Source: Nitrospirota bacterium
GTDB taxonomy: Bacteria; Nitrospirota; Nitrospiria; Nitrospirales; Nitrospiraceae
Direction of reading: 5' to 3'
NCBI GenBank assembly: GCA_963703955.1
Contig: CAVPGK010000015.1
Span: 143,528 to 207,527, forward strand
Length of the DNA stretch: 64,000 nt
Within the stretch, counting starts at the first letter, position 1. Each line of letters begins with the position of its first letter. Below are positions 51,001 to 63,000 of this stretch, one piece after another. The position numbers were made by a program.

Positions 51001-54000
51001 TTGTGGCTGAGAACGGCGACAAGCAGCTGGTCACAACCCACATCGCCACGCCGATCGGAAAATTCAAGCCCAAAGAACATTACCTCGACTGGATCATCAA
51101 AGGCATCGCGTACTGGAAACTCCCGGATGAATGCCTGGACCTGTGGCGCTCGTTCACGCCGCGTTAACCGTCGGCTCTCAGTTCAGCTGGTGATATTCAA
51201 ACAAGGAGCGACCATGCCAAAACCGAAGTATCACATCATCGTCTGTACGAACACACGCCCCCCCGGCCACCCGAAACCATCATGTGGAGCGGCCGGCTCT
51301 CCAGGTATTCTCATGGCATTTAATATAGGACTCATGGAGCGAGGGGTCCAGCCCGGGCAAGTCCTCGTGACCGGTTCCGCGTGCATCGGGCCATGCGAGC
51401 AAGGACCAACCGTCGTCGTCTATCCGGACGCCACCTGGTATTCACAGGTCAAAGAGTCGGATGTTGCCGCCATCTTAGACGAACACATCGGCAAGGGCCA
51501 GCCGGTTGAGCGGCTCAAACCCAACTCAGTGTGGGATTAGTCGGTGCAGGACCACGAGTTCCACGGGTCTCCGGCGTCTCACCGCGAACACAAGAAGCAG
51601 GCTCCAAAACGAATCGGCTGCGTCGTCATTACGTGCAGCGACACCCGAACTATCGAGACCGACACCAGCGGACTGCTCATGCAACGCCTGTTGAAGGAGC
51701 ACGGCCACCAGGTGTCGGCCTATCATCTCGTGAAAGACGAGCCGACGGAGATCAGAAATCTGATCAGGACGGCCGCCGAGGACGAGAGTGTTCACGCCAT
51801 TCTCATCAACGGCGGCACCGGCATCTCCCGACGCGACTCCACCTTCGAAGCCATAGATGGATTACTGGAGAAACGGTTGGATGGCTTCGGCGAGATCTTC
51901 CGCTACCTGACGTATCAAGATATCGGCTCATCCGCCATCATGAGCCGGGCCACGGCGGGCACGTTTCGAGGACGTGTGATCATCTCCACACCGGGTTCTG
52001 AAGGGGCCGTCCGTCTCGCGATGGAAAAGCTGGTCCTACCCGAACTCGCTCATATGATCCAGCAACTTACCCAGTAAGCAGGCGATCCGCTTTGGCCGTC
52101 AGTCCTCAGCTCCCCGCTGACTACCCAGAGTTGATGGCTGACTGCTAGTCTTGCGCGATTTTCGGTTCCGATACCCGCTTAAAATAGGACAGCAAATCGC
52201 GCACGGAGACGATGCCGGTGAGCTTCCCATGCTCTGTCACACCCAGGTGTCGTACGCTCAAATCCCCCATCATATCGTGGGCGTCCTGAATCGTCCGAAC
52301 AGAATCGATCGTGGCGATCGGACTCGTCATAATCGTCTCGATCGAAGTCTTGCCGATATCCACACCTTCCGCTACGGCTCGTCGGACGACATCAGTGTCC
52401 GTGACGATGCCGATAAAGCTTCCGGCTTTTTCTATAAAGAGTGCGCTGACGTGCTCGTCACGCATACGGGAAGCCGCTTCCTTGATCGAGGCGTTGTGGG
52501 CAATGAGCTTGAGCTTCTTTCGCATCACCTGAGTCAACGTTGACATGAGCGATCTCCTTCCTGAACTTGGGCGCGGTGATTTTGTTCACCGCTGCCTGTA
52601 TTGTCAAATCATGAATCTTCCATCTAGAACATCAATGTCCCTTCGATAATCATCACCACCTGCCCGCCGACCTTCACTTCTTGAATCACATCGTCGTCCG
52701 ATTCGACCTGGATCAAAATGCGCGACGGCCGGTCAACCTCATAGCCCTGCTCGGCGACGATCTCGGTTGTTGGAGCCACATCAACCACCCCATACTGGAC
52801 GAGGTAGGCACCCAAGGCGCCGCTGGCGCTTCCAGTGGCGGGATCCTCTATCACGCCGATGGGTGACGCGAACATTCGCGTGTGTACGGCCGATAGCTCT
52901 TCAACCGTCACCGTCGTAAACACCATGATGCCGTTGGTGCCATGTCGAGCGCACAGCTCATTGATCACCGTGCCGTTGGGGACAATCGATTTCACCGCCG
53001 TCAAGGTTCGGACGGGAACGATCAGCACGGGTAATCCGGTCGACACCACCTCAATGGGGAATTTCGTCCCTGTGATGAGCCGCTTGGAGAGCCCCAGCGC
53101 ATTGGCCACCTCGAAAATGTCCTCCACCGCATCGACTGAGCCGAGAAATTCGGGTTTCGGCTGGGACATCACCACCCTGAGAATTTCGCTCTCCTTCACG
53201 TGTAACTCGACCCGAAACACGCCAATGTTGCACTCGTACGCCACTCGTGTGACCGGTTCCTCAAGCGGCAGACGCTTGAGCTTACCGAGGACAAAACAGG
53301 CCCCCAGGACAGGGTGCCCGGCGAAGGGAATTTCCTGCGTCGGCGTAAAAATCCTGATTTTCATCGTGGCGGAGGGGTCGGTGGGAGGCAGGACGAACAC
53401 CGTCTCGGACAAGTTCATCTCCCTGGCGATCTTCTGAAGTTCTTGATCGACGAGATCCACGGCATCAGGTACGACGGCCACGGGATTGCCGCCGAACGGC
53501 AAATCAGTGAACACATCGGCTTGGTAGAACTTGACGGACCGGCGTTCCAGGTTCATAGCGCTTGGAAGGTTACTCTAGGTGAGCGTCGAACCGTTGTCAA
53601 CGTTGGCTGGTTAACGTGTTCTCCCGTCCGTCCGGCACGGTCTGAAGAAGCGGACTCCGGAGAGACTCTGGACCCATCTCTCAGGCGGAAAGAGGAAGCG
53701 CCTCATAGGCTTGGGTCAGAGGATTTCTGACGTAATCCTCCACGTAATTTTTCAGAAGCCCGTTCCGATAGAGCCGTTGATTGGCGAACTTGGTGTCGAT
53801 CTTGTGGAGAACCCTGACCTTCACTCCCGTCTTTCGCATGAAGTCCTCAAGCGTGACGCCCGCAATGTCCATATACAGTCCGCGTCCGGACTGCATCACG
53901 CATTTCGGAATGTGAATCATCTTCTGTGTCACAAGACATCTGGCGATATCATCAAAGGTCAGTAGGACGGTGCAGTCTGAGTCCCCGCCCAGTGTCGCAT

Positions 54001-60000: not shown

Positions 60001-63000
60001 CTCGAGGAGTTCGAATCCTCTCGCCGAAAGCGCGCGCTGAAACGGCACGCGGCGGGCCAATTGACGGGTCTTTTCAAACATGATCAGCCGGCCATGAGGC
60101 GTCAACGCTCGACACAGTGCGTCCAGCCTGGCACATAATCCTGTCCGCTCCTCAAAGCCGTCTTGTGAGTGCTGGTCACTCGGACGATTGAACGTCTCCC
60201 ACGTCGCGCTCGGAATACCTGGATCAGCTTCCGACTGCAAGAGCGCATGGGTGGACACGATCAGATCGTACGTGCCAGGCACCGTTGTGTGTTCCACATC
60301 GACCTTTTCAAATCGAAGATTCGTGAGACCCAAGGCCGAAGCCCGCTGTTGCGCCGCGCGCACTGACGCGTCCGAACGATCAATGCCGACAAACCTAATA
60401 TCGGGGAACTGCCGAGCGTAAAACGTGCTGAGGATGCCGGGCCCGCATCCGAAATCCAGGACCGAGCGCGCGCCTTCGATCCGATCGGCTACGAGCGGGC
60501 CAAGAGCCATATAGTAGTCATAACGCTGGCTGTACAGGACGGGGAGAATGTGCGGTCGAGCGGTGAAATTGTAGAATGCCACTTCGTGAGCCACATCGGC
60601 TGCCGCTATTCGCTTCTCTTCGACCAGCTGATTGAGATGGGTAATCTCGCTCGCGCTCAGAGCTTCGCGTTGCCATTGAAAATACGCGGAATCGGAATCG
60701 AACCGCCGAAGTCCCCACCACTGAAGATGATCAACCAGGTCGGTCATGGCTCATAGCGAATAGCGAGCAGCACATAGCTCAGAAATCCTCCCACAATCTC
60801 TACTGCTTGTCTCCCGCGATTCGCTACGGCTATTGGCTGGTCGCTATGATGGCCTTTTCAGCATGATGGCATCCTCATAGGCGACCGGCACCGGATGGGG
60901 GTGACGGAGCTGTCCGGTTCCTAAGACGACGTATTTGTGACAGGTCAACTCTTCCAGGCCAACGGGCCCTCGTGCATGCATGCGCATGGTGCTGATGCCG
61001 ATCTGCCCACCGAGACCGAACTCCTCGCCATCGTGAAGGCGCGTCGACGCGTTGACCATCACCGCCGCTCCATCGACCTCCTGCGTAAACCGCATCGCCG
61101 TCGCGTAATCTCGCGTGACGATCGTCGCCGTATGGACGGAGCCATAGCGAGCGATATGGCCGAGCGCCTCATCAAGATCTGTGACCGTCTTGACCGCCAT
61201 AATAGGCGACGAGAATTGCTTGGTCCAATCCTCCTCGGTCGCAGCCTTCACTTCTTTATAGGCCCCGAATGATTGCGCCCCGGCTAACGCAAGGGTCTTG
61301 GGACAGCCCCGCACCTCCACCTTGAACTCATCCAGCAGCCGGCGAATCAGAGCAGACAACAGGGAACGCGCGATTGACTGCTGTACCAACAGCGTATCGA
61401 CGGAGCCGGGTGCCGACGCCCGCTGCACCTTCGAGTTCACCACGATATTCTGCGCCAGGGGAAGATCAGCATCCGCGTCGATGTACACATACGAGAGGCC
61501 GCCGTCATGGCAGAGGATCGGAAGACGAGTCTGCTCAATCACGGTCTTTCTCAGTCCCGTGCCGCCACGAGGAATCACGGCATCCAAGTATGGGGTTTGG
61601 CGGAGCAACTCGATCGCGGCTTCTTTCTCGGTCCGCTCTACAAACGAGATGGCGCCCGTAGGAACGCCTGCTCCCTCAGCCGCCTCACGGAGGATCGACG
61701 CCAGCTTGGTGTTCGTGCGAATCCATTCAGGTCCGCCCCGAAACACACACACGTTCCCCGACTTCAGGCAGAGCGCGATCGATTCGGTCATCACCTGAGG
61801 ATCGAATTCGGAGATAATTCCGATCACGCCGATCGGCGTTCGCACCCGGCTGACTTGCATGCCATTGGGACGCAGATGCATCGCGGTCACTTCCCCGACG
61901 GGATCGGGCAGATCGGCGATCCGTCTGACCACCTCGGCCATCGCCTTGACCGACTCCGAGGTCAGGCGGACTCGCTCCACCGCTTCCCGCGCCGCTTCAC
62001 GATCCAGATTCTTGCCGACGGCTTCCGCATCCTGTAGATTCGCCCGAAGCAGCGCCTCTTCTTCGGCCTCCACGCAATCGGCCATCGCCGCTAATGCCCT
62101 GTTCTTGGTCACCCCCGAGAGTAACGCCATTGGGCGAGCGGCCTCACGAGCCCTCTTCGACAGGTTCGTGACATAGATTTTCACCGGAACTTCAACCATA
62201 GTTCACCGCTCCAGGACGTTGCTCTTATTCTGGTAGAACCCACCCTTTTTTGGCGAGACAGCGCTCGATGGCTTGCTGAAGGAGGAGCTTGCTACCTCCC
62301 TGCTGTTTGGGGTCCTGCATGGCCTGGTTTTCGCACGCATTGTAATCCTGCGCGAAGGCTTCTTTGGGTTTATTCGGATGCACCCACGAGGTTGTGCCGC
62401 AGGCTGCGAGCATAAGAACGAAGAACGATAGACTGATACGAATCACCCCCATCAGACCCTCCTCCTAGCTAGGTATTACCATTTCCGAGCACACGAGCGA
62501 GCCGGAGGATAGCCGAGGCGCTCGATTGGGTCAAGGTACGTTCGAAAGGCCTCAGCCGTGCCATCCTTGAGCAAGGCATCGGACCACCTCTTCATCGTTC
62601 ACTTGCTGAAAATTCAGATAATGTTCTCCAACCGAGTAGAATGGAGACGGTGATCCCAGCACGACGCATTCGTCCACCTCCGAAGCAATTCGCCGCACGG
62701 TTTCGGGAGGGGCAACTGGAAGCGCAGCGACAAGACGCGCCACCCCGACCGACTTGAGCGCCTGGACCGAGGCAAGGTAGGTTGCGCCGGTGGCCACTCC
62801 ATCATCGACCAGAATGACCAATTTTCCGTTGAGAGGCGGGAGAACCCTTCCTTGACGGTAGATGTCCCGCCGTCTGGCAATTTCTTTCTCTTGCCTTTGA
62901 CATTCTGCTTCATATGCGGCGGCCGAGGGGAAGAACGACAACAATTCGTCATTCAAATGGACGGAACCGGTTTCACTGACTGCGCTGACGGCCAGTTCAG

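Follow-up and report, generated by a model that had tools for sequence, protein, structure and literature searches.

g2120, a divergent DUF512/Mmp10-type radical-SAM gene kept in most strict nitrite-oxidising Nitrospirales and cut out of comammox loci

Results and Discussion

On sequence and on a structural model, the unannotated gene g2120 encodes a divergent radical-SAM enzyme of the DUF512/Mmp10 type, whose C-terminal domain is of the cobalamin type; by analogy with its relatives, it is probably a vitamin B12-dependent methylating enzyme. Its distribution is newly found here: the gene is kept in most strict nitrite oxidisers and has been cut out of the loci of comammox bacteria (ammonia oxidisers). 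It marks life on nitrite alone, and may serve it. The reading that we favour, with a probability of roughly 0.55, takes g2120 to be a stand-alone radical-SAM C-methylase that depends on cobalamin, belongs to the Mmp10/DUF512 structural class as a Nitrospirales-specific subfamily, and serves nitrite-only growth. The features of the locus are given below, with positions in the window, that is, the whole stretch of 64,000 nucleotides analysed.

52624..53556, minus strand: phzF, PhzF-family isomerase, a syntenic neighbour retained in comammox
53572..53600, minus strand: sigma-70-like site before phzF (TTGACA-17-TAGAGT), a consensus match only
53681..54919, minus strand: g2120, 412-aa ORF, DUF512/Mmp10-type radical-SAM protein
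g2120 residues 40-47: CxxxCxxC, with Tyr48 directly after the third Cys
g2120 residues 89-92: GGNE
g2120 residues about 275-372: Cbl-type domain, containing GGDSDCTVLLT with Leu319
g2120 residues 376-406: extra C-terminal helices
54937..54966, plus strand: predicted promoter for the small gene, of sigma-70 type, with TTGACA at 54937-54942 and GACACT at 54961-54966
54994..55245, plus strand: small gene, helical and with weak likeness to a J-domain, on the strand opposite to all its neighbours
55306..57283, minus strand: rsB, second gene of the tandem pair, split here (a close relative's copy has about 659 aa)
57329..59194, minus strand: rsA, first gene of the pair, 621-aa N-terminal-B12 radical-SAM protein
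59251..60747, minus strand: gene with a class I SAM methyltransferase domain

Family assignment of g2120

The survey's finding had described g2120 as a gene with an invariant CxxxCxxC, and both points hold: the ORF carries C40xxxC44xxC47, and these cluster cysteines were kept in 50/50 aligned sequences. Tyr48 and Leu319 were invariant among 29 orthologues. The single-copy gene, with identities ranging from 59 to 91%, is strongly constrained (pN/pS), showing dN values of 0.05-0.11 against dS values of 1.4-3.0 in all four pairs compared.

The assignment to the Mmp10/DUF512 fold, also made by the survey, was upheld by four methods (profile-profile comparison, Foldseek/VIA, profile search and ESM Atlas). 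Alignment of the 29 orthologues against the separately aligned PDZ-less DUF512 family with hhalign gave a probability of 99.4% (E 5e-21, 328 columns), and a profile search, with four distant relatives included in the alignment, matched the sequences of 9cg2 (E 1e-5) and 9cg1 (E 1e-4) in the region of the C-terminal domain. An independent predicted model (pLDDT 79, pTM 0.79) reproduced the earlier Foldseek result, the nine best matches being Mmp10/DUF512 structures (E 4e-8 to 8e-7) and the next one standing at 8e-4. VIA superpositions (rmsd about 4, 283-317 residues aligned) gave Z values of 17.1 for 9cg2, 15.8 for 7qbs and 13.1 for 9cg1, followed by 12.6, and the ESM Atlas clusters ranked for g2120 were DUF512 (0.97) and Mmp10 (0.92). 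Counting against the assignment, a predicted model of the C-terminal part alone reached a pLDDT of only 52. Of the earlier statement that g2120 has no Pfam or NCBIfam match, one part stood, as searches of these curated collections returned no match above cut-off; however, PF04459 (DUF512) was matched below its gathering cut-off of 25 bits (18.6 bits, E 0.0012, residues 284-371), DUF512 was found at E<=0.01 in 15/29 orthologues, one orthologue scored 25.1 bits, and a 61% orthologue, the members of whose cluster bear the NCBI name "radical SAM protein", exceeded the Radical_SAM cut-off. A single-sequence PDB search gave no match, and g2120 relatives were absent from the viral contigs searched.

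Mmp10, the C-methylase that acts on an arginine in the alpha subunit of MCR (methyl-coenzyme M reductase), carries an extra iron-binding loop. Its structures (PDB 7QBS-7QBV) show the same full-length domain order as g2120 at a TM of about 0.5, whereas identity is 13-14% and no sequence-level match to Mmp10 was obtained in NCBIfam or the PDB; since the host of g2120 is not a methanogen, the substrate must differ from that of Mmp10. The PDZ-DUF512 protein (PDB 9CG1), an ordinary single-copy gene of other Nitrospirota, has the same C-terminal domain, but g2120 lacks the PDZ domain and lies in another gene context. As far as the available part of the description of the Pyrococcus PDZ-less DUF512 enzyme shows (PDB 9CG2; Wang et al. 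2024, PMC11659888), it shares with g2120 the CxxxCxxC followed by an aromatic residue and the short barrel. It is also the best structural match, with a C-terminal cobalamin-type domain containing GG-x4-LLT and the axial Leu: Leu319 pairs with its axial Leu286, allowing a one-residue numbering offset, and Tyr48 with its Tyr47. In contrast, identity is about 17%, the Pfam score lies under cut-off, g2120 has extra C-terminal helices and, among the genomes searched, occurs in Nitrospirales only, and the cobalamin base-binding Thr252 of 9cg2 appears to be replaced, pairing in the sequence alignment with Met284. In this class a Thr or Ser forms the hydrogen bond to the dimethylbenzimidazole tail.

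The invariant Ser287, close to Met284, might substitute for this Thr. The lack of the Thr in register, together with the sub-threshold DUF512 score, would suit a plain radical-SAM enzyme that kept the fold, with a relict domain, and makes no use of cobalamin. We consider this very improbable, as Pro338, Asp351 and the cap motif GG-x4-LLT show no variation even when distant relatives are included, and bluB was found in 4/5 genomes tested, of both kinds.

Distribution and loss in comammox

Among 220 Nitrospiraceae genomes, g2120 was intact in 1/93 comammox and matched in 114/127 of the remaining ones, a split that was also seen within both mixed genera. The survey's failure to find the gene in 4 of 5 Nitrospiraceae is consistent with this pattern. 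In two other Nitrospirales families it was present in 30/30 (f2) and 19/21 (f3) genomes, while no orthologue was detected in 209 other Nitrospirota. Eleven comammox loci were compared: nine showed a gap of 61-162 bp at the former position of g2120, with a 26-codon remnant in one of them (G290), and a tenth (G228) contained a decayed copy. A single genome, G307, combined amoCAB and hao with an intact g2120. Among the 114 amoB-negative genomes with g2120, amoC was absent from all 16 tested, and amoC or hao was found in 11/24 genomes negative for both amoB and g2120.

Some genomes free of amo have lost the gene too. It was deleted in G072 and G114 and reduced to remnants in G380, and six genomes of the g7 group lacked both g2120 and the small gene, the tandem pair being also absent in 5/5 tested. 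NxrB-like genes were present in G114 and G380. A direct role of g2120 in NXR is unlikely, because these two amo-free genomes have no intact copy and comammox keep NXR, as reported in the available part of Kop 2025.

The comammox contrast amounts to about two independent lineages, and the gene may therefore have been lost by hitch-hiking; the result of a Fisher test was set aside, since related genomes are not independent. In another reading, g2120 would be a stand-in, relocated and diverged, for the PDZ-DUF512 housekeeping gene of other Nitrospirota, lost from two comammox lineages by neutral drift, and the ordinary DUF512 was indeed single-copy in 36/52 non-Nitrospirales genomes searched and found in none of 8 Nitrospirales genomes. 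We regard this explanation as rather unlikely: g2120 is nearer to DUF512 proteins from the environment that have no PDZ domain (35-44 bits) than to the PDZ-DUF512 of other Nitrospirota (21-23 bits), scores that come from different databases; the distinct stages of decay (G228, G290, clean deletions) suggest repeated loss; and streamlined genomes of 1.7-1.8 Mb (G280, G288, G369) retain the gene.

Other candidates for a shared distribution were rejected, and among them no partner gene of g2120 emerged. cynS was a blurrier marker, present in 4/26 comammox and 7/15 f2 genomes, with a profile unlike that of g2120. In a five-genome panel, none of the ResB, second cytochrome b, sorA-type and nirA-type genes had the profile of g2120; G072 and G114 retain all four, and the closest, the sorA-type gene, failed solely in these two. 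Cobalamin supply was discarded as a cause of loss, with cbiD in 1/5 and bluB in 4/5 genomes, of both kinds.

The locus

The survey had placed g2120 in an operon, as part of a C-methylation module with PhzF, a small protein and the tandem pair. On this reading, the five genes would share one pathway acting on one protein or metabolite. Its report of orthologues in conserved order was confirmed: identities were 73-90%, and the order pair-small gene-g2120-phzF was preserved in the majority of the best 80 loci of families f1 and f2 (g2120 in 80, the small gene in 77, phzF in 76, rsA in 68). Nevertheless, unrelated neighbours are also preserved, such as a mog-like gene (64/80), and the methyltransferase gene next to the pair is no constant member (16/80). 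The small gene lies opposite in strand to its neighbours in 82/82 loci, phzF is preceded by a promoter-like site of its own (53600-53572), and in f3 neither the pair nor the small gene nor phzF lay within 1.5 kb of g2120 in 14/14 loci. From comammox loci, g2120 alone was deleted, while the pair, the small gene and phzF remained, with at least one pair gene in 24/26 amoB-positive genomes. Thus, co-directionality and joint inheritance were not found for the pair, the small gene, g2120 and phzF; neither the operon nor the module could be sustained, and the module reading, which we hold to be a poor prospect, is largely refuted. In a deep-branching Nitrospirales family, proC adjoins g2120.

The small gene likely starts at ATG 54994 (83 aa) rather than at TTG 54937, and the site at 54937..54966 is its probable promoter, judged from the motif, directed away from g2120. 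The reverse complement of this element, TGTCAAT, was counted upstream of g2120 in 49/96 loci (raw count), and a sigma-54 motif in 0/96; sigma-70-like sites in the region stood at chance level (4 found, 4.8 in shuffles). The frameshift previously noted in one pair gene was traced to three single-base indels in rsB (near 55756, 55899 and 55960), absent from the contigs of close relatives out of two DNA runs; the split is an assembly error or strain-specific.

With their B12-binding and Radical_SAM domains, the pair genes resemble N-terminal-B12 radical-SAM methylases (TIGR03975, PhpK and HpnR types), but score under every curated cut-off. The pair's third paralogue (about 35%) was found again. 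The claim that the pair was undescribed probably does not hold: Table S12 of Kop et al. 2025 lists two adjoining radical-SAM genes, with a third paralogue and a small neighbour, among genes diagnostic of NXR-bearing Nitrospirales, entries that we equate with this locus by gene order, not sequence, so the pair is probably already on record as nitrite-oxidiser genes. g2120 went unmentioned in the searched portions of the comammox radical-SAM and pangenome literature and of the Kop supplements, and may be listed as a hypothetical protein in the Palomo 2018 or Kop tables.

A possible link to methyl-plastoquinone

Either g2120 or the tandem pair might be the enzyme still lacking for the C5/C6 methylation of methyl-plastoquinone, its place being taken in some comammox by MpqQ, which does not need B12. 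The gene that we take to be MpqQ-like is so called from its likeness to Sll0418 and its context, and no family model names it. Such a gene occurred in 43/220 genomes, of which 40 are comammox that lack g2120; it lay 1-3 kb from rsA in 3/20 loci, adjoined a ubiE-like gene in 6/20, and was present in G090, where the pair and g2120 are both absent. Cobalamin-dependent methylases pass on the methyl group intact. In the available part of the supplement of Elling 2025, MpqQ is reported in only 7/62 genomes, the alternative enzyme is left unidentified, and N. moscoviensis, which lacks MpqQ, shows +3/+6/+9 labelling; its authors take this labelling as excluding radical SAM, but it is compatible with intact transfer by a cobalamin-dependent enzyme. 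Several observations make this explanation doubtful all the same. Neither gene was found in 53/93 comammox, including all but 4 of genus g6, the two occur together in three genomes, and the MpqQ-like gene is missing from G072, G114, G380 and the g7 group. Moreover, Leptospirillum and Manganitrophus produce the quinone without MpqQ, according to the same source, and no g2120 turned up in the searches beyond Nitrospirales.

Proposed activity of g2120

As a stand-alone C-methylase, g2120 would work by analogy with Mmp10 and DUF512 enzymes: one SAM would methylate base-off cob(I)alamin over Leu319, and the [4Fe-4S] cluster held by C40, C44 and C47 would cleave a second SAM to a 5'-deoxyadenosyl radical, which would abstract hydrogen from an unactivated substrate carbon, the resulting radical then receiving an intact methyl group from methylcobalamin. 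The product would matter for growth where nitrite supplies all the energy and nitrogen, and gain of amo/hao would make it dispensable. According to the parts available of the Palomo preprint and of Kop 2025 (section 19), assimilatory nitrite reduction is absent in comammox.

As substrate, a protein residue is a tentative candidate, as is another cofactor or small molecule; a quinone ring or a lipid seems less probable, to the same degree, and there is a slight chance that g2120 is not a methylase. Separately, a lead on 11-methyl-hexadecanoate stems from one passage of a review. g2120 could conceivably C-methylate some part of the energy chain that runs on nitrite alone, either a protein residue of reverse electron transport or nitrite assimilation, or the methyl-plastoquinone ring.

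Significance

Which genes set strict nitrite oxidisers apart from comammox is known only in part, and g2120 bears on this question. Its intact, decaying and deleted states amount to a natural knockout series where a suitable genetic system is lacking, so its substrate could be found by comparing proteomes, quinones and lipids of cultured strains, and it may help to distinguish between strict nitrite oxidisers and comammox bins with unassembled amo genes. The reactions of DUF512 enzymes are not yet established, as stated in the available part of PMC13331322. If g2120 does C-methylate part of the nitrite-only energy chain, it would be one of the first enzymes of DUF512 type, other than Mmp10, to have an established physiological role, and strict nitrite oxidisers would use a methanogen-style B12 radical chemistry that comammox repeatedly discard.

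Family assignment of g2120

The 412-aa open reading frame with a CxxxCxxC motif described in the survey's finding maps to the window as follows:

53,681–54,919, minus strand, g2120, 412-aa ORF with C40xxxC44xxC47

Since its dN (0.05–0.11) is far below its dS (1.4–3.0) in four pairs, g2120 is a real gene. A search for relatives retained 767 of 3579 candidates and, among the best 120 of these 767, every named one was a hypothetical protein.

Pfam analysis detected DUF512 at residues 284–371 under the family threshold (E 0.0012), and Radical_SAM was also sub-threshold; P0195, a weak full-length relative, scored above both cut-offs. 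A profile built from 29 g2120 orthologues matched 14 proteins of the P0195 family, aligned without g2120 before the comparison, at 99.4% (E 5e-21, 328 columns). With the AlphaFold model of g2120 (pLDDT 79, pTM 0.79), the nine best Foldseek matches were Mmp10 and DUF512 structures, and VIA, run over 48,161 chains, likewise placed such structures in its first three ranks, the third lying less than 1 Z from ordinary radical-SAM enzymes. Regarding the key DUF512 residues described in Wang et al. 2024 (PMC11659888), Tyr48 is the counterpart of the sandwich aromatic and Leu319 that of the axial Leu, and the base-binding Thr aligned to Met284. From these profile, structure, and residue matches, the proposed Mmp10/DUF512 assignment is upheld. 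The protein most likely shares the mode of action of DUF512/Mmp10 enzymes, without being Mmp10 itself.

Distribution of g2120 and ammonia oxidation

Across 300 genomes sampled from the phylum, g2120 was matched in 32 of 60 genomes of family f1 (Nitrospiraceae), 30 of 30 of f2, and 1 of 1 of f3, all within Nitrospirales, whereas the search matched only two genes, both ordinary DUF512, in the 209 other genomes. Within a rare class of B12 radical-SAM enzymes, g2120 represents an uncharacterised subfamily specific to Nitrospirales. Ordinary PDZ-DUF512 genes adjoin aroE in other Nitrospirota (L095, L101–L104), and loci of sufficient length also show pgsA and pilB-pilT-pilC close by; no such PDZ-DUF512 gene was detected in those Nitrospirales genomes that were searched.

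Within the same sample, amoB was present in 26 of the 60 f1 genomes; g2120 was intact in 0/26, and at least one gene of the neighbouring tandem B12 radical-SAM pair was kept in 24/26. A larger f1 set of 220 genomes (completeness ≥90%, including those 60) contained 82 amoB-positive genomes, of which G307 alone carried an intact g2120, G228 carried a decayed copy, and the other 80 gave no match, and 138 amoB-negative ones, with g2120 matched in 114. Among the 24 amoB-negative genomes without a match, nine carried amoC and two more hao; with these 11 reclassified, g2120 was intact in 1 of 93 comammox genomes vs. matched in 114 of 127 others. These 114 include G380, with remnants only, three frameshifted copies (two with neighbouring genes frameshifted too), and G305 and G329, which are marked unpublished and also counted in the 220-genome g2120, amoB, and MpqQ-like tallies; amoC was absent from all 16 of the 114 that were checked. 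The presence of g2120 and ammonia oxidation are almost mutually exclusive. As comammox forms two clusters, in two genera also holding strict nitrite oxidisers, in the sections of Kop et al. 2025 (PMC12342949) concerned, this represents about two independent contrasts, not 93.

The loss in comammox is physical. In 9 of 11 comammox loci, the spacing between the small helical gene and phzF was 61–162 bp vs. about 1360, one of the nine keeping a 26-codon g2120 remnant; another locus held an internally deleted pseudogene, and the last lacked the downstream part. The small gene adjoins phzF with no g2120 between them in 10 of the 11 reclassified genomes, the eleventh having no phzF inside the stretch examined.

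Exceptions were detected in both directions. The amo-free genomes G072 and G114 had g2120 cleanly deleted, and amo-free G380 keeps remnants; NxrB-like genes are present in G114 and G380. Eleven further genomes lacked both g2120 and the small gene, six of them from genus g7; the five of these six tested (G339, G342, G344, G353, G362), which are amo-free, kept the third paralogue of the pair but had no pair genes, small gene, or g2120. Either a true loss across the clade or gaps in the assemblies may account for this. Conversely, G307 lies outside both comammox genera and has an intact g2120; its amoCAB and its hao are carried by two contigs of 5 kb, and the one with amo ends in transposase-like ORFs. 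Three G307 contigs are concerned:

C161 (L118)
C155 (L189)
C54 (L190)

Its amoA is 88% identical to that of G228 and 83% to that of G162, and its rsA (pair gene) branches with basal Nitrospiraceae, near the window's genome and far from comammox, in a quick tree of 51 rows. G307 is either a mis-binning or an undescribed comammox lineage, its composition being compatible with both.

Genomic neighbourhood

A genome scan gave 381 candidate stretches and bore out 358 of them; the best 80 were kept as loci. The reported conservation of gene order holds for f1 and f2; an unrelated mog-like gene is also kept near g2120 (64 of these best 80 loci of 358). In f3, g2120 occurs in 19 of 21 genomes; it adjoins proC in 10 of 14 loci, and the genes that flank it in the window are missing within 1.5 kb in all 14. 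Without exception (82 of 82 loci), the small gene runs antisense, and we infer that the TGTCAAT word upstream of g2120 (49 of 96 loci) is a −35 box directed into it. Consequently, neither the proposed operon, given the antisense small gene and the f3 arrangement, nor the proposed C-methylation module, given the mog-like gene, the unlinked f3 copies, and comammox loci with small gene and phzF adjacent but no g2120, could be sustained.

In f3 (L175–L188), a GTAGAGTA word about 10 bases before the g2120 start codon resembles the TAGAGT box before the window's phzF and is possibly a g2120 promoter of its own with a very short leader. In every long-gap locus examined (10 of 10), a 220-aa gene that presumably resembles TIGR02466-type 2-oxoglutarate/Fe oxygenases lies inserted between g2120 and phzF:

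L001:4338–5306, L002, L003, L017, L025, L030, L035, L039, L054, L060, antisense, 220-aa inserted gene

The reported frameshift in one gene of the pair was confirmed, in the second gene, as three single-base indels; two DNA runs of closely related organisms gave contigs with the opposite indel at each of the three sites, which makes the break either strain-specific or an assembly error.

The 140 genes diagnostic of NXR-bearing Nitrospirales in Kop et al. 2025 (PMC12342949) include, in Table S12, an adjacent radical-SAM pair (NIDE2780/2781), its paralogue NIDE3276, and NIDE2778; gene order alone ties these genes to this locus, and the locus tag expected for g2120 was not found in the supplements searched. 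Two window genes are, by gene order, probably other entries of that table:

47,164–47,802, precorrin-2 dehydrogenase-like gene
50,724–51,167, gamma-glutamylcyclotransferase-like gene

Possible role

None of the known comammox-absent genes tested had the same profile as g2120. The best-fitting trait is growth in which nitrite alone supplies both energy and nitrogen, as treated in a Palomo preprint (10.1101/138586) and Kop et al. 2025 (PMC12342949), although G072 and G114 retain nirA-type genes despite the deletion.

A different candidate role concerns methyl-plastoquinone, the Nitrospira quinone (Bale 2025, PMC12324825). The C5/C6 methylase MpqQ was reported in 7 of 62 genomes, the enzyme for the remainder being left open in the portion concerned of Elling 2025 (PMC11874023), whose intact-CD3 result is compatible with cobalamin enzymes. 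Either g2120 or the pair could, with low probability, be that methylase where MpqQ is missing. An MpqQ-like gene was detected in 43 of 220 f1 genomes, 40 of the 43 being comammox. We take this gene to be MpqQ-like from its likeness and context. However, neither g2120 nor the MpqQ-like gene turned up in 53 of 93 comammox genomes, which rules g2120 out as the sole alternative to MpqQ; the pair remains a candidate.

In the closed comammox genome G090, g2120, the small gene, and the pair are all absent, and an MpqQ-like gene is present:

G090:C1:313,512–314,504 (L127, L155), MpqQ-like gene region

The adjacent gene is presumably a cobalamin-independent methionine synthase, and the arrangement is a possible B12-sparing replacement.

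The value of the finding lies in an uncharacterised subfamily, specific to one order within a rare class of B12 radical-SAM enzymes, whose presence and ammonia oxidation almost exclude one another.
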